A stretch of 56,302 nt of DNA from a virus: UHGV virus genome UHGV-0090450; one strand, 5' to 3'. Numbering within the stretch: the stretch's first letter is position 1; each line of letters starts with the position of its first letter. The position numbers were made by a program, and so were the translations under genes. A model generated the notes under the pieces. That model was given only the letters and a program-made list of their open reading frames with translations. It searched no databases and was not told where the DNA came from. Shown in pieces: positions 33,006 to 56,302 of this stretch.

Positions 33006-34073
33006 TTAATGAAATTTATCTCGGATGAATTGTTGCGATGGCTTTTCAATGAATATATATGACATATAGCTAATTGCCATTAATGTAAGCATGAATAAAA
33101 TGAATACCTTGGGGCTGTAAAAAAGATCGCGTCCATAGCCAATCTTGTCAGCTAAATAAACAACAATGATTTGCAAAGGAAAATGTAAAAGATAAGATGA
33201 ATAACTGATATCACCCAACCATTCAATTTTCTTCCCAAAATCGTTTCGTATTGCGCTAATTGATACAAGGAAAAAGATTATGGAGGTAAATCCGAATAAG
33301 ATAATTGAGAATATATCTGCTACTTGCAGGGTAAAGATAACTCCCCATGAGATCAATAGAAAAACACAAGCAAAAATAAAAAATAATTTTGCGCTAATAT
33401 TTTTTATGACCGCAATCGTAATTTTATAGGTCAGACCACCAATAAAGAAAGAGAATGCGCCGATCATTATGGGATTGTTAATTTTGAAAAAGTAGTACGA
33501 CAATGCAACTATTAAAATTGATATGAATGTTGTTTTTGATGTGAACTTGCATAATATAAAAAATATCATGTACATAAGTACTTCAATCGACACGGACCAT
33601 GTCGGGGCGTTGAAGGACCAACCTCGCTCAAATCCCCATGATTGAATCATCAATAAATTCAGAATGGCATGGTAAATGTCATTCATAGGATAAACAAAAA
33701 AATAATTATGACTTTTAAAGAAAATAATTTGTAATATTGCCACGACAGCAAATGTAAATATATAAAGTGGATATAATCTACTGACACGGTTAACTATAAA
33801 AGTTTTTGCTGAGGTTTTATTGCTGTGTATATTGTCAGCGTATAGATAAAAAAATATGAATCCAGAAATCATAAAAAACAATTCGACAGCATATAAACCG
33901 TAATGATAAAAAACGGAAAAAAATTCATAAAAAGGTTGGCGGTTTATGATTATGTCAGATGCAGCATTCTTTTTCATAAAAAAATGTTGCCAATGCCATA
34001 ACACAACGGAAAGTGCGGCAAATCCTCTCAGAACATCCAGGGTATATATTCTCTTCCCAAAAAAATTCGTCAC
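33006..34073 (-). CDS. acyltransferase family 3 integral membrane protein (O-antigen acetyltransferase-like)
   Basis: About 10 predicted TM helices; N-terminus LDVLRGFAALSVVLWHWQHFF; very AT-rich. Confidence 0.85.
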   Translation of the reverse strand: MTNFFGKRIYTLDVLRGFAALSVVLWHWQHFFMKKNAASDIIINRQPFYEFFSVFYHYGLYAVELFFMISGFIFFYLYADNIHSNKTSAKTFIVNRVSRLYPLYIFTFAVVAILQIIFFKSHNYFFVYPMNDIYHAILNLLMIQSWGFERGWSFNAPTWSVSIEVLMYMIFFILCKFTSKTTFISILIVALSYYFFKINNPIMIGAFSFFIGGLTYKITIAVIKNISAKLFFIFACVFLLISWGVIFTLQVADIFSIILFGFTSIIFFLVSISAIRNDFGKKIEWLGDISYSSYLLHFPLQIIVVYLADKIGYGRDLFYSPKVFILFMLTLMAISYMSYIFIEKPSQQFIRDKFH

Positions 34074-34623: not shown

Positions 34624-35493
<870 letters not shown>

Positions 35494-36032
35494 CTAACCC
35501 TTTGAATTTACATAGCGCAAAAAGATACCTTTCCTCATAATGTGAGCTAATTTTATGTTTCGTTTGATGATCGGATCGGTCTCGAAACCCGTAGCCACGT
35601 CGTATGCAAGAACGTGCTACGACTGGCTGGTGAACTTCCGATAGTGCGTGTATTGAATGATTTCCAACTGTTATCGATTTTGCGTATTTTTTGCATGAGA
35701 GGATTTTTACCTCCTCCCACCGATCCTCCATGGCTTTACGCCAGTGTCTCTGGTCTGCTATGTGCCAGAAGCGGAAGTTCCCACTATTATGCTCTGCATC
35801 GATACCGGGAAGGTACTTAAGTCCCCCGGTATTCACTGATATTATCCTCCAGCTACCGCAATGCCGCCCAATCTGGTATGGCTTAGCTAGCCAAGTAACT
35901 GCTGGCAGAAAGGCCTCTTCAAGCATACCATCCGGATTTACCGATGAGATTTCCCATCCAGCACGGAAATGATACTTTCTACTGACCCCAGATTTTTACT
36001 AAGACAATAAAGATACTGGATTCAATGAGGGG

Positions 36033-38597
36033 TTATTTCATAAGAGTGCGCCTTGTTTTGATCTGATCACGCCATTCTTTTAACGTGCTTATATCCGCTC
36101 GCAGCTCCTTATACTCTGGTATAGAAGCTGGCATTTCCGTCGACTGGCTGTGCTCATAACAGCTGTATTTAGTCATGAGGCTTTCAATCAATTTACAGTC
36201 TTCTGCAGTTATATCCTGTACATACGGAAGCCTTCCGTCAGTCTGGATTCCTCTTCTATGACGTATAACTACCCCGTTAAATAAATCCTCCTCGACAGAG
36301 CGCTCAATGAGTTTACGAAAATCACTGCAAACGCCCTGAGCTAGCCCACGGAAAGCTATTGCGCCATGTTCTTGTCCAGATTTGTAGGCTGAATCCAGCC
36401 TAGTCAGGAGAATGTTATTCGCTGATTTGGTATTCGCGTTCCAGACCTCCTGATCGGCAGGATGACCGGCAGCTCCATCAAATGATTCAATACATATCGA
36501 TTTATGGTGCTGCTTTTTCCATGGGTCTCCCTCTTTTCTTGCCAAATCTTCAATTACCCCGTAAAGGGAAAGTCTGTGCGTTAAAATAATCACCTGACGC
36601 GATTTAGCGAGTTCAACGAGGCGTTTAGCAACTTGCCACTCAAATTCGTGGTCCAGAGATGAAATAGGGTCATCAAAAATGAAGGGAGCAGATCCCGGCC
36701 GATCAGTGACATCGGCTAAAAATGCAGCCAGTGAGATAATCCTACGTTCTCCTTCACTCAGAACATTGTGCAACTTGTCCCGTTGCGCTCCTTTTAGCTG
36801 TAGCTGATGCAAAACTTTCGCATTTTCTGTCCTTATTTTCACAAGCTCAACCTGCAAGCCAGGAGCACCAAGAACTTTCAGCTCACGGTTGAATCTGGCG
36901 GCATAGGCTTCAGTGACAACTTTCTGAGTAATATCAGCAGATTTAGTTGATAATGCACGGGAAGCGGCAAGTGATATCCATTCATCAAATTCACTTCTTT
37001 TTTTTAAGCGTTCAACTTCGGCTCTGATAGCCTCGGCTTGACCAGATAACCACCGTCGAGCTTCGGCTTCGTTTTTATTCTGCAAAGCTTTGGCCCTGTC
37101 AAATCCTGCTGCATCTCTCTGAAACTGGTCGGCTTCTCCCTGAAGCCGGTCGCGGTAAGTACGTAAATTCGTGATAGCTTCGGTCAAATCAGCCAAAGGA
37201 ACTGCTGTCTGGGTAGCTTCATGCTCGGTGAGCGCCTGACGACTGAGGGATGCGGAACTCCATATTCCCGTTAGGTATTTATTCCATTCTTCCTGAATCG
37301 CAGCGCTTGCACAAAGGGTAGCAATTTCGGCCATTGAGGGAGGAATAGTTATCGAGCCGATTGCCTGAGCATACAGACACTCAGCTGTGGCAGCATCGCT
37401 CTCAAGACGTGATTGCACGAAAGCCTCAAGATTGTTCAGACGCTGCTGAGCTTCTGCGGATAGAGCCTGATTGCATAAAACACAACAGGCCTCATCTGTT
37501 GCCGGAAAAGCCTTGTCTGGATAGGGCGTCCTTGAATAGTCGCGAGCAGCTTCCCACATGGCACGCCATACAGGTGAGCCAATGCCCTCCAGTGAGTCAT
37601 CTTTTATTCGTTCACTATCAAGCGCAATTCTGCGCTTGCTGATGCTATCAGCACGTAACGCCCGAAGACAGTCGATATTTGACTGGCTAAAAGTCTTTGC
37701 CGTCTGCTCAAGTTGAGTGATGATCTGATTAACAGATGTTTGAACCGCAAGCTTGTTGCGGGCGTTCTCAGCCGGATCTTTAACGTTCAGACGTTCATTC
37801 AAGGCACTAAGCGCTTGCTCATCCGCCTCAGACCAGTTTGTCATCACTGCGATATTTTCGGTAGTTGCTGTACTTAGTGCACTATAGGTAGTGGCAATAT
37901 GACAACGCTGATAAACAGCAGGTAGTTCGGGAAGTTTGCTGACTAGCTGAGACTGTTCATCCCTTAGCTTATCGCGTACCAGTTTCAGGTACTGGGCCAG
38001 TTTTTCAAAAAGCCCCACCACACTCGGTATATAGGTAGCGGCACTCTCTTGGGTGAGATAATGCAGAGATTCATCCGTATCGAAGATATCAATGCCTTTC
38101 AGGGCATCGATCGGAGGGCTGTCAGCTGACCAGTCCGCTTCAGCATTGCTTTCATTCGCTTTCCATTTAATGTGGCAACTTCGCTCAGGTGGTAAGGGAT
38201 TAAAGACATTAGAGTTAAGCTGAGCTGCTCTAGGTTTTCCGGACATACGTTTGAGCACACGCGTATAGCTGGATTTACCGGACCCGTTATGGCCGTAAAT
38301 AACAGTCAGATTCCCTGAACCGAAATCGAGCGGTAAACGTGGAGCAAGGTTCTCAATACCCTTTACAGCTTCGATCCGACTTAACCTGAGTGTTCCAGAT
38401 CCCTGCTCTGCAGATGCTAGGCCTAGGAAAGTATGGTGTGTCGTTTTTGTTCGTCCATGGGGGGTCTTGAGTAAAGCAATAACCTGCTGAAGGTCATTAT
38501 CTGTCAGGTCATCCTGTTGAATGAGTCTTTCCGCTAGTTCCTGAAACCAGTCCTGCTGCTTTAACAGCCAGGCTATGATATCGGCCTTTACATCCAT
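36033..38597 (-). CDS. RloC-like ABC/SMC-type ATPase with coiled-coil insertion and CxxC zinc hook (AAA_13-like)
   Basis: Walker A VIYGHNGSGKSS, signature LSEGERRIISLAAFLA, Walker B FIFDDPISSLD, H-loop ILTHR, CVLC within the roughly 500-aa insertion; RBS AGGAGGG. Confidence 0.7.
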   Translation of the reverse strand: MDVKADIIAWLLKQQDWFQELAERLIQQDDLTDNDLQQVIALLKTPHGRTKTTHHTFLGLASAEQGSGTLRLSRIEAVKGIENLAPRLPLDFGSGNLTVIYGHNGSGKSSYTRVLKRMSGKPRAAQLNSNVFNPLPPERSCHIKWKANESNAEADWSADSPPIDALKGIDIFDTDESLHYLTQESAATYIPSVVGLFEKLAQYLKLVRDKLRDEQSQLVSKLPELPAVYQRCHIATTYSALSTATTENIAVMTNWSEADEQALSALNERLNVKDPAENARNKLAVQTSVNQIITQLEQTAKTFSQSNIDCLRALRADSISKRRIALDSERIKDDSLEGIGSPVWRAMWEAARDYSRTPYPDKAFPATDEACCVLCNQALSAEAQQRLNNLEAFVQSRLESDAATAECLYAQAIGSITIPPSMAEIATLCASAAIQEEWNKYLTGIWSSASLSRQALTEHEATQTAVPLADLTEAITNLRTYRDRLQGEADQFQRDAAGFDRAKALQNKNEAEARRWLSGQAEAIRAEVERLKKRSEFDEWISLAASRALSTKSADITQKVVTEAYAARFNRELKVLGAPGLQVELVKIRTENAKVLHQLQLKGAQRDKLHNVLSEGERRIISLAAFLADVTDRPGSAPFIFDDPISSLDHEFEWQVAKRLVELAKSRQVIILTHRLSLYGVIEDLARKEGDPWKKQHHKSICIESFDGAAGHPADQEVWNANTKSANNILLTRLDSAYKSGQEHGAIAFRGLAQGVCSDFRKLIERSVEEDLFNGVVIRHRRGIQTDGRLPYVQDITAEDCKLIESLMTKYSCYEHSQSTEMPASIPEYKELRADISTLKEWRDQIKTRRTLMK

Positions 38598-40157: not shown

Positions 40158-40203
40158 ATTCGTAATGCGAAGGTCGTAGGTTCGACTCCTATTATCGGCA
40201 CCA
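40158..40203 (+). other. 3' fragment of tRNA-Thr (anticodon loop to CCA), att core
   Basis: ATTCGTAATGCGAAGGTCGTAGGTTCGACTCCTATTATCGGCACCA matches the 3' 46 nt of E. coli tRNA-Thr(CGU) as recalled; no matching 5' acceptor strand upstream. Confidence 0.7.
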
Positions 40204-40369: not shown

Positions 40370-41584
40370 GTGAAACTCAATGCCCGTCAAATAGACACTG
40401 CCAAGCCAAAAGAGAAGGCTTACAAGCTGGCTGATGGTGGTGGTCTGTATCTCTTGGTAAAACCTAGTGGAGGAAAATATTGGCGCTTCAAGTATCGTGT
40501 AGCTGGTAAAGAGAAGCTGTTAGCACTAGGTGTGTATCCTGAAGTTACCTTGGCTGATGCTCGTGCAAAACGTGAAGAAGCTAAAAGGGGTATCGCTGGG
40601 GGTATCGATCCGATGGAAGCGAAACGAGAGGAAAAGATTGCCCGGGAAACGCAGTTAAACAACACCTTCAAAGATATTGCCCTTGAGTGGCACAGCAGCA
40701 AATTAAAAAAATGGTCTGCTGGTTATGCTTCAGACATCCTCGAAGCCTTCAACAAAGATGTGTTCCCTTACATTGGCAAAAAACCAATCGCCGAAATCAA
40801 ACCACTTGAACTGCTGAATGTGCTGCGGCGCATCGAGGGGCGCGGTGCTACCGAAAAAGCCAAAAAAGTGAGGCAGCGATGTGGGGAAGTTTTCCGCTAT
40901 GCAATTGTCACTGGACGTGCTGAGTATAACCCTGCACCGGATCTCACCAGCGCGATGCAAGGTCATGAATCTAATCATTATCCTTTCCTCACAGCCAAAG
41001 AATTACCTGATTTTTTCAAGGCATTGTCCAGTTACTCAGGAAGTGCATTGGTTGTTATGGCGGCTCGTTTACTGATTATCACCGGTTTGCGGACTGGCGA
41101 ACTGCGCGGTGCATTATGGGATGAAATCGATCTCAACAAGGCTATCTGGGAGATACCTGCTTCACGGATGAAAATGCGTCGCCCTCATGTAGTGCCTTTG
41201 TCTGAGCAGGCTCTTTCGCTTATTGGGCAGATTAAAGAACTAACTGGCAATTATCCGCTTATGTTTCCCGGCCGTAATGATCCAAGGAAAACAATGAGCG
41301 AGGCTAGCATAAACCAAGTATTTAAACGCATCGGCTATAACGGAAAGGTTACTGGTCATGGCTTCCGGCACACTATGAGCACCATTTTGCATGAGCAGGG
41401 CTATAACACCGCGTGGATAGAGACACAGCTTGCGCACGTCGATAAAAACTCAATTCGTGGCACATACAACCATGCGCAATATCTGGATGGGCGGCGGGAA
41501 ATGCTTCAGTGGTACGCTGATTATATGGATTCGCTCGAGCATGGCGGAAATGTGGTGCATGGTGAGTTCGGAAAATGCGGGTGA
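40370..41584 (+). CDS. int: tyrosine integrase (P4 type, N-terminal arm-binding domain)
   Basis: N-terminus KLADGGGLYLLVKPSGGKYWRFKYR, C-terminal catalytic region (HGFRHT, LAH...RGTYNH); GTG start after GGAGG; adjacent to tRNA fragment. Confidence 0.9.
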   Translation: MKLNARQIDTAKPKEKAYKLADGGGLYLLVKPSGGKYWRFKYRVAGKEKLLALGVYPEVTLADARAKREEAKRGIAGGIDPMEAKREEKIARETQLNNTFKDIALEWHSSKLKKWSAGYASDILEAFNKDVFPYIGKKPIAEIKPLELLNVLRRIEGRGATEKAKKVRQRCGEVFRYAIVTGRAEYNPAPDLTSAMQGHESNHYPFLTAKELPDFFKALSSYSGSALVVMAARLLIITGLRTGELRGALWDEIDLNKAIWEIPASRMKMRRPHVVPLSEQALSLIGQIKELTGNYPLMFPGRNDPRKTMSEASINQVFKRIGYNGKVTGHGFRHTMSTILHEQGYNTAWIETQLAHVDKNSIRGTYNHAQYLDGRREMLQWYADYMDSLEHGGNVVHGEFGKCG

Positions 41585-42737: not shown

Positions 42738-42935
42738 ATGTCAAATACGCTTATTCGTTTAACAGAAGTTCAGCGTAGAACTGGATATAGCAAGGCATGG
42801 ATTTATCGCCTTATGGGGCAAGGTAAATTTCCTGCATCAGTTAAAATTGGCTCGCGAGCTATTGCTTTCGTTGAGAGTGAAATTGACGAGTGGATTAATC
42901 AGCGTATTGCGGAATCACGCGGAACAGCTACCTGA
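42738..42935 (+). CDS. alpA: AlpA-family transcriptional regulator / excisionase-like
   Basis: 65 aa, LTEVQRRTGYSKAWIYRLMGQGKFP HTH. Confidence 0.85.
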   Translation: MSNTLIRLTEVQRRTGYSKAWIYRLMGQGKFPASVKIGSRAIAFVESEIDEWINQRIAESRGTAT

Positions 42936-43012: not shown

Positions 43013-43420
43013 ATGAAATTTCCAAAAACGCCCGTACAGGGGCGGGGCTTCGTTCGGCCTGAAAACCAGAATCTGCAAAATTTCGGCGAAATTATCCCGA
43101 TTATTTCCGGCGTTATTGGCGGGAGTGAAACCACTATTGTTAGCGCCAGAGCGTTATATAAGGCGTTAGGTGTAGGGCGCGTTTTCCGTTCGTGGATCAA
43201 GGGGCGCATTGAAGAATACGGGTTCACGGAAGGCGTGGATTATGAGGTTGTTGAATATTTGAGCCGACCCGATCCGGTGAGCGCAAAATCTCGCCAGCAA
43301 ACCGCTCTTGAGTACATCATCACAGTGAACATGGCGAAAGAACTGGCGATGGTCGAACGTACCGAACAGGGCCGCGCCGTTCGCCAGTACTTTATCAAAT
43401 GCGAGGAGGAGCTACATTAA
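43013..43420 (+). CDS. antirepressor-like protein (ORF6N/AntA-type domain)
   Basis: FRSWIKGRIEEYGFTEGVDY and ITVNMAKELAMVERTEQGRAVRQYFIKCEE match ORF6N/AntA pattern. Confidence 0.65.
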   Translation: MKFPKTPVQGRGFVRPENQNLQNFGEIIPIISGVIGGSETTIVSARALYKALGVGRVFRSWIKGRIEEYGFTEGVDYEVVEYLSRPDPVSAKSRQQTALEYIITVNMAKELAMVERTEQGRAVRQYFIKCEEELH

Positions 43421-43424
43421 GCCA

Positions 43425-43742
43425 ATGTGTGCCGCGCTGGAGGCGTACCGGGCTGAACTGGGTAAAAACACACTCCAGCACCACTACACCACGGAAGCGA
43501 ACATGCTGGCGCGTATCGTGCTGGGTGGCATGACTGCAAAACAGTGGGCACTGGCGAACGGCATTACAGGCGAACCACGCGACCACATGAGCACGTTGCA
43601 GCTTGAGCACCTTTCTTACCTTGAGCAGAGCAATATCACGCTGATTGAGTTAGGCCAGGACTACCACCAGCGGAAGGCTGAATTAATTCGTCTTTCGCAG
43701 CGTTGGTTAGCCCGTCGCATGGAGGAAAACAGCCATGTGTAA
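43425..43742 (+). CDS. hypothetical protein (105 aa)
   Basis: ORF immediately downstream of antirepressor-like gene. Confidence 0.4.
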   Translation: MCAALEAYRAELGKNTLQHHYTTEANMLARIVLGGMTAKQWALANGITGEPRDHMSTLQLEHLSYLEQSNITLIELGQDYHQRKAELIRLSQRWLARRMEENSHV

Positions 43743-44414
43743 CGCTCTGACCGTTACAAAAAGAGAAAGCGCCCCGTTGCCGGAGCGCCTTTGTGAACGA
43801 ATAGCCTACTGCGCCATATTGCTTACTGTCTACGAGGCAGATTATAGCGTTGTGGTCGCACAGAGTGAAGGCGCTGATCACCGTTACTACAGCACGCCAG
43901 AAATGCAGAATATTTTGCTGCAAAATGTCGTTGGTCACACTGTCCGGAAAGCAAAAAATTTTGCTGGTGGCGCGACTGATGCGATTTTGTCAGGTCGCCA
44001 GGTGCTGATCAATCTGATGTCTAATTTCGTTCTGGATAAAACAAAGGCGACCGCAGAGGGCCACCAGTGGGAAAGCTACACACTTGAACACATCGCCAAC
44101 AATGCCAGATTTGCGGCTGGTGGGCAATGTGATCAGTGTGCTGGCTTGCTGGTGGGCTATTCCTGCTCTTTAACATTGCCATGCCGCGATGTTTTCCAGG
44201 TATGCGACCCCATTTTTGTGCGCCTGTACTCTTTAAGGAATTTCTCAAGGATAAACGCACAGGGCGCGAATCTGTCTGACTCATATTCGTACGCTATCTT
44301 TCTGCGCTGTCTTTTCCGTGCCGGTGATGGTGTATTGGTCGATTCTTTGTTGGTCATTCTGTGTACCTGTAAAGCAATGCGCCGGAGTTCCTCACACCAC
44401 GGCGATGATAGTTA

Positions 44415-44720
44415 TTATTCTGATTCTTTGGCCTTGCGGCGCTGGAGTTCTTCACGTGCGACGGTGACGAGCTGCCCGATCTCCTCGACAGCTTTGACTC
44501 CGATTTTTTCTACCTGCGCCAGTGCATTGAGCGAAGAAACCAGGGGATTTTCTCCGCTTCCTTCTGCCTGGCGGCGGGCGATCTCACCACGCATGGCGGT
44601 TACTATGAATCCGGCGTTGCTTTCGCCGTCCAGTTTTACGGATTCCATGCCTTCAAAAGCATCATGTGGGATACGAATTGAAATCTGTTTTGATTTGTCG
44701 TTGATAGTGTTTTTTGCCAT
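44415..44720 (-). CDS. hypothetical small protein (about 101 aa), possible regulator
   Basis: ATG (MAKNTIND) preceded by AGGAGA; track ORF extends to 44759. Confidence 0.45.
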   Translation of the reverse strand: MAKNTINDKSKQISIRIPHDAFEGMESVKLDGESNAGFIVTAMRGEIARRQAEGSGENPLVSSLNALAQVEKIGVKAVEEIGQLVTVAREELQRRKAKESE

Positions 44721-44907
44721 GTGCATTCTCCTAAACAAAAGATGTGATTCAGTATACACAAAAAAGAATCACAAAAAATACTTGACCTGTGATTCAGTTA
44801 AATTTAATTTAAATCACACCTCAGTAAGAGGATATAAACGACAACGCCCCGAACTGTTTGCGGCAGTAGCGGGGCGTCTAACCAAACCGTTAAATGAGGT
44901 AACGATT

Positions 44908-45273
44908 ATGGCTGGGGCACAGCATACCCAAACTCACCCTAAATTTATATACACCTTCCTGGCGGTGCACCGTGATTGCATGGCTGACGGTAAAAACACT
45001 GTTCATGTAGCCGCCGATACGCTGGTTGATGCCTGCGAGATGCTCAATGACATGGGCTATATCTCGGCAACATGGAAAGGGCGCGAAGAAAACACGTTGT
45101 TTATTCAGAAATGCGAAAACAATTTTATCTGGCGTTTTATCGCCCTGAGTACGGCACAACCGCGCGTGATTCACATCGAGGCCACCAGCGAACAGGAAGC
45201 ACGCCAGCAATCTCCTGATGGCTGCGTGATGGTATTCGCTGCCCGTATTCGCCAGGAGGTGGAGCATGTGTAA
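44908..45273 (+). CDS. hypothetical protein (about 121 aa)
   Basis: ATG at 44908 (MAGAQHTQTHPKF) preceded by GAGGT; protein-like composition unlike the upstream part of track ORF 43735-45273. Confidence 0.45.
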   Translation: MAGAQHTQTHPKFIYTFLAVHRDCMADGKNTVHVAADTLVDACEMLNDMGYISATWKGREENTLFIQKCENNFIWRFIALSTAQPRVIHIEATSEQEARQQSPDGCVMVFAARIRQEVEHV

Positions 45274-46271: not shown

Positions 46272-46562
46272 ATGAAAAGGAAAAATTCTGGCTTTACTGC
46301 CAGCGGTCTCTCTCGGCCTGAAATCAGACACGGAGATATTTACCGCGACACCAGACGTGGGGGACGAGTGGTTATTCGTCACGTTACGCCAGGCAATATC
46401 ACCTACCGCCGTGAGGCTTACGAATATGACTGCGTAATGCCGCGCCGTCAGTTTGAGCGTGATTTTATTCTGGTGGAAAACAAACAACAGGCAGTGGCGA
46501 GACGTGCAGCCACGAATATTAAAAAAATCCGGGCAATGTTGGTTGCGGGAGGTAAGAAGTGA
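46272..46562 (+). CDS. hypothetical small basic protein
   Basis: ORF overlapping primase start. Confidence 0.45.
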   Translation: MKRKNSGFTASGLSRPEIRHGDIYRDTRRGGRVVIRHVTPGNITYRREAYEYDCVMPRRQFERDFILVENKQQAVARRAATNIKKIRAMLVAGGKK

Positions 46563-48364
46563 AAAACGCACCGAATTTAAAATATCAGCCGAAGGATAAA
46601 TTCACCGAGGTAATCATTTTTGCCGGGACGGATGCTTACGCCCATGCTCAACACTGGATTGAAAGCGAAGGACGAAAACACGGCGATAACGTGCCTCCTG
46701 TTTACCTGGGGCCAAAGCAACTGGCAGACCTGGCGAATATCCGCATTGTCGACGATGAACGCCGCTTTGCGCGTGTCTATCTCGCGGGGGAGATAGAGCC
46801 AATCCAGATCAATGCTATTGCTGAAAAGCTGGCGCTGGCTGGTGTACAGGACGCGAAATTATACAAAGGTATCACCGACCGGGAGCCGGAAAACTGGCGC
46901 GACTACCTGCAACGGATCCGCGAACAGGCAGAGAGTGGGGAAGTTTCAGCGATGAAATTAGCCACAAAAAATATTGACCTATCCAGGCCAGCACTAAATC
47001 AGATGGGAGCCAGCCAGAGAGGGGAAGTGTTACTTGAATATTATGGAAGAGCACTGGCTATAAATGATGATTCTGATGTAGTTCACCATTACAACGGAAT
47101 TGTCTGGGTGCCTGTATCTGATAAGGAACTCCAGCGGTCTATGGCGAAGATTTTTATTGATGCTGGAATCAGTTATTCGCAAAACGCCATTAAATTTGCC
47201 GTAGACACAATGAAATTGAGCCTGCCTGTTATGGGCGGGGCAGACAGGAATCTTATTGGATTCAGTAACGGGGTATTTGATACCCGGACGGGAAATTTTC
47301 GGGAGCATAACAAAAATGACTGGTTGTTAAATGCCAGTGAATTACCGTTCAGCCCACCAGCAGAGGGGGAAACGCTGGCAACACATGCGCCGAATTTCTG
47401 GAAGTGGCTGCGTCGTTCGGTGGCAGATAATGATCGTAAAGCTGATCGCGTACTGGCGGCATTATTCATGGTGCTGGCGAACCGGTACGACTGGCAGTTA
47501 TTCCTTGAGGTAACAGGCCCAGGCGGAAGCGGTAAAAGTGTGATGGCTGAGATTTGTACCATGCTGGCGGGTAAGGCCAACACAGTATCGGCAAGCATGA
47601 AGGCTCTGGAAGACGCAAGGGAACGCGCGTTAGTAGTTGGCTTTTCGCTGATTATCATGCCGGATATGACTCGCTACGCTGGCGATGGTGCAGGAATTAA
47701 GGCAATTACTGGCGGCGACAAGGTGGCAATTGATCCGAAACATAAAGCCCCCTACTCCACACGTATTCCGGCAGTAGTGCTTGCGGTAAACAATAACGCC
47801 ATGTCATTCAGTGACCGAAGCGGGGGGATCTCGCGTCGTAGGGTGATATTTAATTTCTCTGAGGTCGTACCGGAGAACGAACGCGATCCCATGCTGGCGG
47901 AAAAGATAGAAGGCGAACTGGCGGTAGTGATTCGCCATTTGCTAACACGATTTACCGACCAGGACGAAGCTAAAAGACTACTTTATGAGCAGCAAAAATC
48001 AGAAGAAGCGCTGTTGATAAAGCGCGAAGGTGATTCACTGGTGGACTTTTGCGGCTATCTGATGTCGTTGGTTAAATGTGAAGGAATGATGGTGGGCAAT
48101 GCGGAAATAGTGCCATTTAGCCCGAGGCGATACCTGTATCATGCTTATTTAGCCTATATGTCAGCGCATGGCCTGGGAAAACCAGTATCACTGACACGCT
48201 TTGGTACTGATATGCCAGGAGCTATGGCGGAATACGGAAAGGAGTATAAGCGGGCTAAATGCACTAAAGGCCCGGATAAAGGGCGAGTGATAACAAATGT
48301 TCTGTTAGATGATGATGCTGATGGCTGGTTGCCAGCAGCTACAGGGATTAACGACAGAACATAA
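46559..48364 (+). CDS. primase / replication protein (P4 alpha-like)
   Basis: 601 aa; Walker A-like GPGGSGKS in C-terminal half; followed by iteron origin. Confidence 0.85.
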   Translation: MKNAPNLKYQPKDKFTEVIIFAGTDAYAHAQHWIESEGRKHGDNVPPVYLGPKQLADLANIRIVDDERRFARVYLAGEIEPIQINAIAEKLALAGVQDAKLYKGITDREPENWRDYLQRIREQAESGEVSAMKLATKNIDLSRPALNQMGASQRGEVLLEYYGRALAINDDSDVVHHYNGIVWVPVSDKELQRSMAKIFIDAGISYSQNAIKFAVDTMKLSLPVMGGADRNLIGFSNGVFDTRTGNFREHNKNDWLLNASELPFSPPAEGETLATHAPNFWKWLRRSVADNDRKADRVLAALFMVLANRYDWQLFLEVTGPGGSGKSVMAEICTMLAGKANTVSASMKALEDARERALVVGFSLIIMPDMTRYAGDGAGIKAITGGDKVAIDPKHKAPYSTRIPAVVLAVNNNAMSFSDRSGGISRRRVIFNFSEVVPENERDPMLAEKIEGELAVVIRHLLTRFTDQDEAKRLLYEQQKSEEALLIKREGDSLVDFCGYLMSLVKCEGMMVGNAEIVPFSPRRYLYHAYLAYMSAHGLGKPVSLTRFGTDMPGAMAEYGKEYKRAKCTKGPDKGRVITNVLLDDDADGWLPAATGINDRT

Positions 48365-52023: not shown

Positions 52024-52569
52024 ATGCATGAGGTGAGCTACATGTTGATGAGTAAAGCCGAATACGCCAAATACAAAGGCGTAAGCCGCCAGACAGTTTA
52101 CGACTGGCTCGAGAAAGGCGAAGTGGTCATGTCCGGTAAAAAAATTGATGTGGAAGCGACAGAGCAGCGGAACAGCCCACCAGCACAGGGGAAAGACACC
52201 ATTTCTGAAATGTGGCCAGAAAGAACGCTGGAAATGACATGGGGCGAGTTCTGGAAAGCAGTTAAGGCCAGAGACGGTAAAATTCCTGCGCCAGTAACGG
52301 ACGAGGGCATACAGCAGCGTGTGCTGTATGCAGCCGGGGAATTAGGCTGGGAAGTGCACTTTCTTGATGATGGTGCTATCTGCCTTGAGGATGATGAAGG
52401 GCAGCATTACTTTGAAAAATACAATTTGCGAGGTAATGCCAGGCTGGCAATTCGTATGCTGCGTTGCGAACTCTGCTATGTTGCAGGTGATTATCCCGAT
52501 GAACCGGAATCATGGAGTGAAGCCGGGTTAAACGCCCTGGCTGAGTGGGAAAAATCAGACCATCAATGA
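52024..52569 (+). CDS. HTH-domain protein (181 aa)
   Basis: N-terminal SKAEYAKYKGVSRQTVYDWLEKG helix-turn-helix-like segment. Confidence 0.5.
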   Translation: MHEVSYMLMSKAEYAKYKGVSRQTVYDWLEKGEVVMSGKKIDVEATEQRNSPPAQGKDTISEMWPERTLEMTWGEFWKAVKARDGKIPAPVTDEGIQQRVLYAAGELGWEVHFLDDGAICLEDDEGQHYFEKYNLRGNARLAIRMLRCELCYVAGDYPDEPESWSEAGLNALAEWEKSDHQ

Positions 52570-52942: not shown

Positions 52943-53527
52943 GTGATGAGTTTTTTTAGTCTTTATGGGAAAGAACTATTTTCTTTTTTTATAACGATTT
53001 TAACATGGATACTGAATAACAGATTTAAAAGCAAGGCAAAGTTATCCTATGGTTATCAGCATGGATTTACTTTTCTTCTCAATGAACCCTTACGGAATGC
53101 CAATGGTGAGGTAATATCTAATTCACAGTTGGTGTATACACGATCTATTATTCTTGTTAATGAAGGGCGAGAAAGTGCTACTAATATCTCATTGGTTTTT
53201 AACTATAAGCCAATGCATATTAATTTTTGGCCTGTCCACCATTTTGAAGAAAATATTGAACAGGATGGTCGCTATATTATCAAGTTTGAAAGCCTTGCAC
53301 CTGGTGAGTCTATTCAATGTGAAATATTATCAATAAATAGAGAAGTTCCAAGTATTCTATCGATAAGATCTAAAGAGTGTGTGGCTGAGCCAGTGAATAT
53401 CGTGATGCAAAAATCGATTAGTAATATTGCCCTACGTTGCTATCAATTATTAATACTTCTTGGAACTGGCACATTAACATATTTAATTATCGTTATTCTG
53501 CAATGGTTAGTCACTAAAACGGGATAA
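52943..53527 (+). CDS. membrane protein (N- and C-terminal TM segments), AT-rich cargo
   Basis: Hydrophobic termini; no known domain. Confidence 0.5.
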   Translation: MMSFFSLYGKELFSFFITILTWILNNRFKSKAKLSYGYQHGFTFLLNEPLRNANGEVISNSQLVYTRSIILVNEGRESATNISLVFNYKPMHINFWPVHHFEENIEQDGRYIIKFESLAPGESIQCEILSINREVPSILSIRSKECVAEPVNIVMQKSISNIALRCYQLLILLGTGTLTYLIIVILQWLVTKTG

Positions 53528-53549
53528 TCCATTGTATTGAACTTATTAA

Positions 53550-53759
53550 TTGGATATGAGTGCTGATAGGAAACCTATGACCATCACCGAAGCCGATATG
53601 CTGGAGATGATCCGCAGCATTGCCGGAATCAAACAACCAGCAAGCAAAATTAACAGGTGTTCAGCGCCTGTTTCCGTTGTGCTGCAACAGGAACGCCACC
53701 AGCGGCGGGAAAACGAAAAGGCGTACCAATGGACGAAGCCAAACAAGTTACGGCGTTAA
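53550..53759 (+). CDS. hypothetical small protein
   Basis: ORF only. Confidence 0.3.
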   Translation: MDMSADRKPMTITEADMLEMIRSIAGIKQPASKINRCSAPVSVVLQQERHQRRENEKAYQWTKPNKLRR

Positions 53760-53793
53760 TTAGGGATGCGGGCTGGGATAGCCCGCATTTTGC

Positions 53794-54051
53794 TCACAGC
53801 TTGTTATAAATTTTTCCAGCGAAGTCATGAACCGCCTGAGGAATATCCGACGGCGTACCTAGCATTGTTGGCGCATCGGAAACAAAGAACATGATCGCTT
53901 CTTTGATTTCTTCGAAAGATGGGGTAGGGGTAATGCGCTTGAGATTTGAAACAGCCCGTCGGAACTCCGCCGTATCCATTGGATGCCTGCTAAACCACGT
54001 TGGACTAGAAGCCCAACATTTTACTGCTTCTTTCACCTTAGTGTTCATCAT
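53794..54051 (-). CDS. hypothetical small protein (85 aa)
   Basis: Only minus-strand ORF in this stretch, divergent from 54654 gene. Confidence 0.4.
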   Translation of the reverse strand: MMNTKVKEAVKCWASSPTWFSRHPMDTAEFRRAVSNLKRITPTPSFEEIKEAIMFFVSDAPTMLGTPSDIPQAVHDFAGKIYNKL

Positions 54052-54653
54052 TTTTCCTTTTGCTTATTACCATACAAAGCATGTGGAAAGAGAAGATTAA
54101 CATGGAAAATATGGGGTTGGTGAGCAAATGGTACTGGTAGCCCGTCGACATCTATCAGCATGATGATGTGAGGCCGTATCAGTGGCGGAAACCGAACAGG
54201 CTGCGACGGTGAGCGGGGCGTTATAGTAAGCCAACAGCCAAGCCAAACATTAAGCCTAAGGGTAGGGCTTTTTTGTGGCTGGTGGCGTAATGCCAACATT
54301 GTTACATGATGTTTTGAGGTATTATCTGCATGTTCGTGGTGAGGAACCACCAGAACTGATGAGCTTTTGTTTATGCATGTACTGCATGAAAACTGTCCTA
54401 TAAAGTGGGGGGTAGGTGTGCTGAGGAGAACATTGTGAGCTACGCCAAATTAAATTGTGTCGGGGGTGAACAAGTTTCTTGATAGGTGTCAGTAGGCACC
54501 TATAGTTATAGGCTTCTTCAATTTTGTGTGCACAATATTTTGTATTGATTGGGGATAGGGTTGCACGCAAAATTAAAAAATGTATATTTATTAACGTGTA
54601 TTTGATAATTTTTAAATAAAATATTTCTCTATGTTTATCATAAAAGGTTTTTT

Positions 54654-56252
54654 ATGAGCGTGGCAATAAAAACAATGACACCAGTGTCATATTCTATAAA
54701 AGTTGATGCGATTAAGAAAAGATTGTCATATTTTAGTGATGTTTCTTTTTTGAGAAATTTTTATGAACACTTCCAAAAAGTAAGGGATGTCGAGGTGGGT
54801 ATTGTTTCCAATTTCCCTTGGTGTTGCTATCTGGCAATGAAATGGAAGTTTTGCATGAAGGAAAAAAAGCCTGCAAAAGAAATGAGTAAAAATGATTTTG
54901 TTGATATTATCAACTTAATCTATAACTTGCAACTAGAAGCATCTAATTTAATCGTTGATGATAAAGTTATGCTAAGCCTTAGACGAATGGTGATAAATCA
55001 GTTGCTTTATCAATCAACTGATAAATTTAATGCCAATTCATTAACAAGACAGTATATTTGGTATTGCTTGAATGATGAATCATATTATAAAGATAAGTTT
55101 TTAGAATGTACTGGTTTACATTTGGAAAACTATTACAAAATGGCATGTTATTTTACCGCTATTTCATGTATTAATCCTGATATAGAATCAGAGGTTATTC
55201 CATTTAAACACTTGATAATAAACTTGGTTCCGATATTTGGTCCGGAACAAGTGAAAAGATTTTTGGAATTAACATGCTTAAAAATTGATGGTGTGAGAGA
55301 TTTTATTGCCCCATATAAATTGGATAAAAACATTACCGCTGAGTATTATGAAGATACACCATTCCTCAGTAAACCAATGTTTTTAGATGGCGATGGTGTA
55401 GTGATATTATGCAAAAGAATCATGAAGTCAGGGTTTGTCAACCTAGTTCCAGAATTGTTCAAGCAGGTCTATAAGGAATCTTATAAAGAAAAATTTGGTA
55501 AGACGATGGAACTTTATATTTCTCGCTTTCTTGATAAGTACAATTATAACTTTAAGACTGAAAGGGAGGTTAAGAGGATTTATAGTGATAATGCAATAAA
55601 AAATTGCAAGTCCGTAGATTTTGTTATTTCAGAGGGAGATTCAATAGTTTATATTGACTCGAAGGCAATAGAGCCTGCAAAGTTCGTTAAAACATCTAAT
55701 AATGCTCAGTTGCTAAAGGAAAGGTTGAATAAGAGTTTTATTAAAGGGATTTATCAAGGTCAGGAATGTGCTTTTAACTTAAATAAAATAGAGATGAGAA
55801 AACCATCTTCGAAAGATTCAATGTTAATTGTGGTGCATCGGGATCATCATATATCAAATGCAATGGTTGTGCAGGATTTTATTAACCCTGATTTATCAAC
55901 TGAGTTATCTGAAAAATATCATAGTATCCCCATTAATCTAAAAAGAATTTACTATATAACAATTGATGAGTTCGAATTATTACTTATGATGTGTAAACAG
56001 AAAGAACTATCTATTAATGAGTTTATTGATATGTGTGTGGAAAAAGATTCATTCCCTCATACTCAGAAGTCTAATCTAAGCATGCACATATATGAATTTG
56101 CACCAGAGGGTATTGATGATGATCAATTGATTGTAAAAGGAAGAGACTTACTGATTGATGATGTTATTGAAAATATGAAAGAGAGTGCATCAAAATGGTC
56201 TGGGAAAGTTGATATGTATCTTAAAATAAAAGATTATATTTTTAATTGGTAA
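54654..56252 (+). CDS. large AT-rich orphan protein (532 aa), possible PD-(D/E)xK-like motif
   Basis: Long clean ORF at about 30 percent GC; segment SVDFVISEGDSIVYIDSKAIE fits D...(D/E)xK pattern. Confidence 0.6.
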   Translation: MSVAIKTMTPVSYSIKVDAIKKRLSYFSDVSFLRNFYEHFQKVRDVEVGIVSNFPWCCYLAMKWKFCMKEKKPAKEMSKNDFVDIINLIYNLQLEASNLIVDDKVMLSLRRMVINQLLYQSTDKFNANSLTRQYIWYCLNDESYYKDKFLECTGLHLENYYKMACYFTAISCINPDIESEVIPFKHLIINLVPIFGPEQVKRFLELTCLKIDGVRDFIAPYKLDKNITAEYYEDTPFLSKPMFLDGDGVVILCKRIMKSGFVNLVPELFKQVYKESYKEKFGKTMELYISRFLDKYNYNFKTEREVKRIYSDNAIKNCKSVDFVISEGDSIVYIDSKAIEPAKFVKTSNNAQLLKERLNKSFIKGIYQGQECAFNLNKIEMRKPSSKDSMLIVVHRDHHISNAMVVQDFINPDLSTELSEKYHSIPINLKRIYYITIDEFELLLMMCKQKELSINEFIDMCVEKDSFPHTQKSNLSMHIYEFAPEGIDDDQLIVKGRDLLIDDVIENMKESASKWSGKVDMYLKIKDYIFNW

Positions 56253-56256
56253 TTAA

Positions 56257-56284
56257 GCAAGGGTGTTATTATCAACACCCTTGC
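56257..56284 (+). terminator. hairpin GCAAGGGTGTT-ATTATC-AACACCCTTGC after the 532-aa gene
   Basis: Perfect 11-bp stem; no strong T-run. Confidence 0.4.
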
Positions 56285-56302
56285 TCATAGTCTTACAATA
56301 TT

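Follow-up and report, generated by a model that had tools for sequence, protein, structure and literature searches.

A probable GapS1-family anti-phage nuclease encoded in an exchangeable cargo slot of a thrW island

GAPS1 was defined by Mahata et al. as a single protein from a GMT island of Vibrio parahaemolyticus, which protects Escherichia coli against coliphages (bioRxiv 10.1101/2023.03.28.534373). A member of the same family is the subject of this report and is encoded by an open reading frame (ORF) at 54654..56252 (+) of the virus genome UHGV-0090450, which was analysed as one stretch of 56,302 nucleotides and is referred to below as the window. The founding member of the family (WP_005477165.1) has a predicted PD-(D/E)xK domain toward its C-terminus, and either of the substitutions D313A and K328A abolishes defence. 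Mutations that allow T7 to escape GAPS1 map to the capsid protein Gp10, and co-expression of GAPS1 with Gp10 leads to dormancy. The E. coli homologues share 24-29% identity with Vibrio GAPS1, and four were tested, EGQ2075554.1, EJP5250929.1, WP_152927281.1 and WP_194242909.1; each of the first three conferred protection on E. coli against diverse coliphages. An endogenous homologue in E. coli ZH142-A was needed for defence, with growth arrest at a high multiplicity of infection (bioRxiv 10.1101/2023.03.28.534373).

A second system, Upx (Gao et al. 2020), is like GapS1 a single-protein defence with a C-terminal PD-(D/E)xK core, and has been described by cryo-electron microscopy (9wuf; PMC13099982) and with regard to its sensing of terminase (PMC13601566). 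Upx works on single-stranded DNA in the presence of Mg2+, and phage packaging proteins activate it or are bound by it (PMC13099982, PMC13601566).

Publications thus already cover the family, with its catalytic motif and its role against phages, and report activity for an allele nearly identical to that of the window; RefSeq also names the gene. What is said here of protection by the near-identical allele, of the need for the D and K residues, of triggering by a capsid protein and of dormancy is drawn from the literature; the family membership of the window protein, its motif, its predicted fold, its single-gene status and its position in a cassette were computed here. On this evidence, the ORF very probably encodes a stand-alone anti-phage defence nuclease of the GapS1 (GAPS1) family, which by extrapolation would have a capsid-type trigger and growth arrest as the outcome.

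Family membership, tested alleles and catalytic residues

The 532-residue product matched the NCBIfam model NF047931 ("antiphage_GapS1") with a score of 441.1 bits against a cutoff of 320 (E=4.8e-132), residues 20-478 covering the full profile (1-455 of 455). Window positions 53400-56302 are 100% identical to DNA of E. coli K56-43-un, where the RefSeq coding sequence is gapS1, WP_001526660.1. The exact protein was found on 93 contigs of a public collection, and its 90%-identity cluster has 271 members. When a profile of 30 homologues was run against a library of 1.84 billion proteins, 1235 clusters at 50% identity were recovered, 809 of them at E <= 1e-10, and nearly all were full-length matches of about 500-540 aa; diverse homologues found by the window-clade profile also matched NF047931. 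A full-length match to phrog_14259 was obtained as well (E=6.6e-18). A representative of the Vibrio-GAPS1-like clade (P0104) and the window protein share 27% identity over 487 aa (E=1e-55), which agrees with the published values of 24-29% for the E. coli homologues. An earlier reading made from the sequence alone, hereafter the sequence-only reading, had called the protein an orphan that could be placed in no family, and this description has to be withdrawn in view of the full-length, above-cutoff profile match, the RefSeq name and the more than 800 clusters of relatives.

The reason why the protein looked unplaceable probably lies in two of the libraries searched. PADLOC-DB 2.0.0 (2023) gave no match for the 532-aa protein, and since this library predates GAPS1 its null result is not evidence of novelty. 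Pfam gave sub-threshold matches only, for example to TPD at residues 273-349 and to DUF4143.

The accession WP_001526660 is itself absent from the supplementary text files of the GAPS1 paper, and the link to tested alleles came instead via its table of cloned inserts, in which every synthesised insert is represented by its first 380 nt. Comparison of the EGQ2075554.1 insert with window positions 54654-55033 showed identity at 379 of the 380 nt. The sole difference lies at 54900, where the window has G and the insert A, giving V84I, and the first 126 residues are otherwise equal. The inserts of EJP5250929.1 and WP_152927281.1 encode N-termini unrelated to that of the window protein and belong to a different sub-clade. 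The proposal of the sequence-only reading that this was a single-gene defence effector is supported by the NF047931 membership and by the tested near-identical allele, and also by the absence of conserved neighbours across hosts that is described below.

The catalytic motif, VDFVISEGDSIVYIDSKAIE, occupies residues 321-340 of the window protein. The sequence-only reading had recognised the PD-(D/E)xK pattern itself correctly but had placed it at residues 315-335. Its codons lie at 55617..55664 (+), with D322 at 55617-55619, D335 at 55656-55658 and K337 at 55662-55664; the codon of E286 lies upstream at 55509-55511 (+). To compare this motif with that of Vibrio GAPS1, the latter was rebuilt by translating the mutagenesis primers of the GAPS1 paper, the full-length comparison being the one made with the clade representative P0104. 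The Vibrio motif GKVV-D313-FLHQRNGTSIFIDA-K328-GVEP and the window motif KSV-D322-FVISEGDSIVYIDS-K337-AIEP could be aligned residue for residue, with a spacing from D to K of 15 residues in both proteins.

Conservation of these residues was followed in two sets of homologues. In an alignment of 30 homologues with 25-57% identity, E286, D322 and K337 were invariant and column 335 always held D or E. A second set of 132 diverse representatives, 17-38% identical to the window protein, was drawn from the 50%-identity clusters found by the 30-homologue profile. Here D322, K337, Q116, P241 and Q368 were 100% invariant, position 335 was D in 89 of the 132 sequences and E in the remaining 43, and E286 was conserved in 125 (95%). 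Q116 (54999-55001) and P241 (55374-55376) both belong to the N-terminal part of the protein and not to the nuclease core. Q368 (55755-55757), invariant in 132 of 132, falls in a predicted helix of the core spanning residues 362-379.

Predicted fold and proposed mode of action

A model of the window protein was built by AlphaFold2 with a 30-sequence alignment, and had a mean pLDDT (predicted local distance difference test) of 88.8 and a pTM (predicted template modelling score) of 0.89. The predicted nuclease core spans approximately residues 275-440 (55476..55973 (+)). Within it the model places a helix at 275-295, carrying E286, a strand at 300-302, a strand at 323-327 that is preceded by D322, and a strand at 330-337 carrying D335-x-K337, followed by the helix at 362-379 with the invariant Q368 and a strand at 389-394 (beta4). 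As modelled, this is the canonical alpha-beta-beta-beta-alpha-beta core of PD-(D/E)xK nucleases. The PD-(D/E)xK core proposed at the outset is therefore borne out by the motif, by its invariance across the family and by the predicted fold.

The nearest folds to the model in the PDB were Upx, type II restriction enzymes and Hjc resolvases. A Foldseek search against the viral structures of BFVD returned no match at E <= 1e-3, and a profile search of all PDB sequences with the 30 GapS1 sequences returned nothing meaningful, the best match being neurocalcin at E=1.1. Upx and GapS1 are alike in the arrangement of their catalytic residues, with D in beta2 and (D/E)xK in beta3 (D1161 in beta2 and E1176/K1178 in beta3 of Upx), and activation by a phage structural or packaging protein is common to Upx and the GapS1 family. 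In contrast to GapS1, which has 532 aa and one nuclease core, Upx has 1212 aa and two nuclease domains and senses terminase. Membership of GapS1 in Upx was considered and rejected; the PDB profile search with the 30 GapS1 sequences found no chain of it, 9wuf included, and the likeness is one of fold only. The closest known system remains the GapS1 family, whose founding member, Vibrio GAPS1, is like the window protein a single polypeptide of about 500-540 aa with PD-(D/E)xK in its C-terminal half, standing alone on mobile elements, the difference being that Vibrio GAPS1 is carried on a GMT island and the window gapS1 on a phage-inducible chromosomal island (PICI)-type island at thrW.

The core and its E...D...(D/E)xK residues are also shared with type II enzymes and nickases (N.BspD6I, R.BspD6I, Bse634I, HindIII and Cfr10I) and with the Hjc resolvases. 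It could thus be envisaged that the window protein is a solitary restriction-type endonuclease, either type IV/methyl-dependent or an orphan type II enzyme, which cuts foreign DNA with neither a phage-protein trigger nor growth arrest, and a cassette with no methyltransferase would fit a modification-dependent enzyme. However, a capsid protein is what triggers members of the family, and dormancy follows co-expression with it even when no phage DNA is present; in addition, the growth arrest that accompanies the endogenous E. coli homologue at high multiplicity of infection resembles abortive infection. The GapS1 family as a whole displays trigger-dependent growth arrest, unlike the constitutive restriction by type II enzymes, and GapS1 differs from those enzymes further in having no cognate methyltransferase and a large conserved N-terminal region. 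That region, conserved family-wide and containing the invariant Q116 and P241, is more in keeping with a sensor than with a simple reader of DNA, and none of the solved restriction enzymes was found to resemble GapS1 in sequence. A restriction-type enzyme of this kind is accordingly considered very unlikely.

For the GapS1-type nuclease, a mode of action can be proposed by extrapolation from the characterised members of the family. The protein would be inactive in uninfected cells. Its N-terminal, mostly helical region is presumed to be the sensor, and the C-terminal half would form the PD-(D/E)xK core with E286, D322, D335 and K337. The trigger would be a phage structural protein that appears late in infection, as with the T7 major capsid protein for Vibrio GAPS1, and the triggered phosphodiesterase activity would then stop growth, by dormancy or abortive infection, leaving the phage cycle incomplete. 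The window allele may use the same class of trigger, a late structural protein sensed via the conserved N-terminal region. We infer that activation would unleash nucleic-acid cleavage, and DNA is the likely substrate because the modelled fold is like those of restriction enzymes and Upx and has a winged-helix-like module.

Several points weigh against this account and temper the confidence placed in it. The molecular target of GAPS1 is stated to be unknown (bioRxiv 10.1101/2023.03.28.534373). The published experiments concern the I84 allele, whereas that of the window is V84, and identity to EGQ2075554.1 beyond residue 126, over some 1.2 kb, is assumed from cluster membership. The capsid trigger and dormancy were established in the Vibrio protein, which is about 25-29% identical, and in another E. 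coli homologue, both of other clades, so that they would apply to the window protein by analogy. Finally, the TM-score of the model to Upx is weak globally, at 0.18-0.32.

A single gene in the last cargo slot of a thrW island

The ORF was confirmed exactly as the sequence-only reading gave it, with an ATG start and 532 codons followed by a stop, and is supported by the ORF call, the NF047931 match and the RefSeq annotation of identical DNA. The chance of 532 stop-free codons, computed at the ORF's own base composition, is about 5e-22. The strongly deviant base composition reported for it also stands, as its GC content is 0.308 (0.37, 0.26 and 0.29 at the first, second and third codon positions), whereas the window as a whole has 0.48 and the remainder of the island 0.46. 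The 600-bp AT-rich region said to precede it requires qualification. A spacer of 602 bp (54052-54653) is present, but with an overall GC of 0.40 it is moderately AT-rich, the low values being those of the approximately 200 bp proximal to gapS1 (54451..54653 (+), GC 0.29), while 54052-54450 is at 0.45-0.47. Within this AT-rich leader, a promoter scan identified a sigma-70-like site, TTGATA-16-TATAGT, at 54479-54506 with 10 of 12 matches, which may be the promoter of gapS1; promoter-like matches in the leader as a whole were not enriched over shuffles in the same scan. A Shine-Dalgarno-like AAGG element is found 8 nt 5' of the ATG.

The hairpin noted after the ORF is likewise real. It lies at 56256..56285 (+), 4 nt past the stop codon, with a perfect 12-bp stem formed by 56256-56267 and 56274-56285, a folding energy of -21.1 kcal/mol and z = -5.73, and none of 200 shuffles folded equally well. 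As it is not followed by a T-run, it is not a canonical intrinsic terminator, and the terminator scan did not call it; it possibly serves as an element that stabilises or terminates the transcript.

Comparison with islands carrying other cargo allowed the limits of the cassette to be placed. Homology of the backbone ends at window position 54286 and resumes at the window-equivalent positions 56510-56563, that is, 260-310 nt past the gapS1 stop, after which 474 nt lead to a degenerate attR. The low-GC cassette thus begins at 54287, runs on the plus strand to the end of the window at 56302 and extends about 210-260 nt past it, amounting to some 2.2 kb. It holds only gapS1, its leader and its hairpin, and forms the last cargo slot before attR. 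In EC11 the slot is occupied by an Old-family nuclease (PADLOC Old, E=2e-62), and in E. coli SCU-104 by a DUF4747 protein and a 199-aa protein (L004, 6690-8182), neither of which has a PADLOC match. QML220601 has a related island at a different chromosomal site, with no cargo gene at the position of the slot. The expectation of anti-phage cargo in a variable region is thereby upheld for this satellite-like island, gapS1 residing in a slot where it is exchanged for the Old nuclease or other genes. This particular gapS1 region is carried by 5 of 5426 complete E. coli genomes, and 88 complete E. coli genomes have at least part of a 2.9-kb query in common, for the most part the stretch of backbone that immediately precedes the cassette.

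A few observations on the slot may be added. Because its other occupants are GapS1 and the Old nuclease, the DUF4747 and 199-aa pair of SCU-104 is a candidate for an uncharacterised defence system. In E. coli 537-20, gapS1 is a pseudogene (L002, 18725-20093): a 1-bp deletion has broken it into two coding sequences, one of which bears the erroneous annotation 'orthopoxvirus A36R protein'. At 54252-54270 (+) of the window, just before the breakpoint at 54286, there is a stem-loop with a T-run that resembles a terminator, AAGCCTAAGGGTAGGGCTT TTTTGTGG, and no obvious plus-strand gene ends at it.

The small divergent gene 5' of the ORF was also found where the sequence-only reading had seen it, at 53794..54051 (-). 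It was predicted by the ORF call, is annotated in RefSeq relatives and encodes a hypothetical protein of 85 aa with no Pfam, PHROG or PADLOC match. A small divergent gene 602 bp upstream, taken with the knowledge that PD-(D/E)xK proteins can be toxic, might suggest that gapS1 is the toxin of a toxin-antitoxin pair in which the 85-aa protein is the antitoxin or regulator. The 85-aa gene, however, lies to the left of the breakpoint, in the conserved backbone, and accompanies the Old nuclease in EC11, so that it is not a partner of GapS1. Moreover, homologues of GapS1 occur elsewhere with no such gene beside them, and GAPS1 homologues expressed alone in E. coli provide defence with no reported toxicity, other GAPS candidates having been listed as toxic (bioRxiv 10.1101/2023.03.28.534373). 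The chance that a toxin-antitoxin pair explains the locus is, in our view, close to negligible.

No partner gene of GapS1 is conserved, its neighbours being entirely different from one host to the next among E. coli, Klebsiella (L006) and Permianibacter (L007). The Klebsiella homologue adjoins TraC and Mrr genes in a context resembling an integrative and conjugative element, and that of Permianibacter follows ribonucleotide reductase genes in plain chromosome. GapS1 homologues were also located on a few large plasmids. More distant homologues, with about 22% identity over 93% of the query, lie at the extreme end of the 35.5-kb Klebsiella phages Kp4845-2 and relatives (OK490395.1, 142-1611), showing that the family is phage-borne too. 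These unrelated neighbourhoods confirm that GapS1 is an autonomous, mobile, single-gene system.

The island that carries the cassette lies downstream of a 46-nt 3' half of tRNA-Thr (thrW) at 40158..40203 (+), which reproduces exactly the tRNA-Thr 3' end found in strains 537-20 and K56-43 and the last 17 nt or so of which (40187-40203 (+)) form the attL core; no complete tRNA is present within the window. Downstream of gapS1 no exact repeat of the tRNA 3' end of at least 12 nt was found, but when the right flanks of related genomes were aligned, the degenerate attR, TCCTATTATC(G)CACCA, came to lie outside the window, about 785 nt 3' of the gapS1 stop codon. From attL to attR the island thus measures about 16.9 kb, and it matches the corresponding thrW island in E. 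coli 537-20 at approximately 100% identity. It encodes on one strand a tyrosine integrase (40370..41584 (+); Pfam Arm-DNA-bind_3, Phage_int_M and Phage_integrase), an AlpA-family regulator/excisionase (42738..42935 (+); Pfam Phage_AlpA, E=2.4e-19, and a PHROG excisionase/regulator match) and a primase-helicase, pri-rep (46559..48364 (+); Pfam D5_N/DUF5906/Pox_D5, and phrog_864 DNA primase, E=1e-156).

Classical PICIs are defined by the order int-alpA-pri with no structural genes (PMC13612085). The island has this order, is bounded by att sites and lies within the size range of 10-18 kb. No structural or lysis gene names occur in its RefSeq annotation, and none were obtained from Pfam and PHROG scans of its larger ORFs, the sole related match being a weak TerS-like HTH; several ORFs were matchless. 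With int, alpA and pri-rep as its only PICI core markers it is a 'Type C' element of SatelliteFinder, a class in which satellites, defective PICIs and other mobile elements may all occur. It is plausible that the island is a phage satellite, to judge from its gene content. A P4-like identity was rejected, as psu, sid and delta were found neither in the RefSeq annotation of related islands nor in the Pfam and PHROG scans, which covered the larger ORFs and not all small ones. The sequence-only reading had set the ORF at the distal end of a satellite; gapS1 is indeed the last gene, in the last cargo slot of a satellite-like island, while satellite status itself is plausible on the strength of three PICI core markers.

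The remaining genes of the island include an AntA/AntB antirepressor gene (43013-43742 (+)) with a frameshift that is also present in strain 537-20, an Icd-like fragment, ProQ/FinO and PerC. A 512-aa ORF at 43735..45273 (+) was rejected as a real gene, since only its last 52 aa or so match Icd-like/repressor PHROGs; two annotated minus-strand genes lie across it, and a genuine gene of that length is improbable. At 52024-52569 (+) a 181-aa protein with an N-terminal helix-turn-helix (HTH) is encoded, with an HTH_17 match and a weak match to the small-terminase family PHROG 57 (E=2e-6), and this may be the packaging-redirection (Rpp/TerS-like) gene of the island.

Exchangeable defence slots between backbone and attR are likewise known from the hotspots of other satellites, namely the accessory regions of PICIs and the hotspots of P4 (Rousset et al. 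2022; Fillol-Salom et al., cited in PMC13612085 and PMC10085698), though the window island differs from these in having only three PICI core markers and no P4 markers in the scanned ORFs or in the annotation of related islands. This setting raises the question of whether gapS1 could serve the satellite itself, as a life-cycle or helper-interference factor that degrades helper DNA or processes DNA for packaging, with no general role in host defence. In keeping with such a role, gapS1 ends an int-alpA-primase island that encodes the weakly TerS-like HTH protein, and a tandem SfII-like prophage, described below, could serve as helper. Against it, otherwise homologous islands have replaced the cassette by the Old nuclease or the DUF4747 pair, or leave the slot empty, and gapS1 is thus dispensable for the island. 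Homologues also occur outside satellites, in the Klebsiella element, the Permianibacter chromosome, Vibrio GMT islands, temperate Klebsiella phages and large plasmids as mentioned above, and plasmid-cloned homologues provide defence with no island at all. Such a satellite-dedicated function is therefore very improbable, and an anti-phage role for GapS1 carried as cargo remains by far the preferred interpretation.

The adjoining prophage arm and a possible thrW unit

Positions 1-40157 of the window make up the right arm of a myovirus prophage that is SfII/SfI/SfIV-like, with 96-97% identity across the genes from packaging (terminase) to tail. The prophage lies in thrW in tandem with the island, only the 46-nt tRNA-Thr 3' half separating them, so that the remnant at 40158-40203 marks the junction. 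Collinearity with strain K56-43 across the window was rejected, there being no tRNA in the window and an SfII-like prophage upstream of the thrW remnant. The SfII-like prophage could be the helper phage of the island.

Further defence cargo was noted on this arm. A GIY-YIG protein encoded at 34624-35448 (-) matched PADLOC PD-T4-3 (E=3.8e-140), and an 854-aa AAA_13/SMC_N ATPase encoded at 36033-38597 (-) matched the candidate system PDC-S06 (1059 bits); between the two genes lies a 157-aa ORF (35453-35926 (-)) with no match. In addition, a 31% GC patch beside the tail-fibre genes holds a gene for a 355-aa Acyl_transf_3 protein (33006-34073 (-)), which looks like a serotype-converting moron of the O-antigen acetylase type.

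These findings bear on the biology of the family and of its carriers. The predicted fold would link GapS1 to Upx-like PD-(D/E)xK nucleases that are activated by phage proteins, and gapS1 is now documented as swappable cargo of a PICI-type island at thrW, where it occupies a defined slot of about 2.2 kb. A more speculative suggestion, which we hold to be unlikely, is that the capsid sensing of the window GapS1 is tuned to spare the island's own helper, maybe the SfII-like prophage, while aborting competitors, thrW thereby harbouring a co-mobilised unit of helper, satellite and defence. If this were true, the thrW unit would carry PD-T4-3 and PDC-S06 on its prophage arm and GapS1 on its satellite arm.

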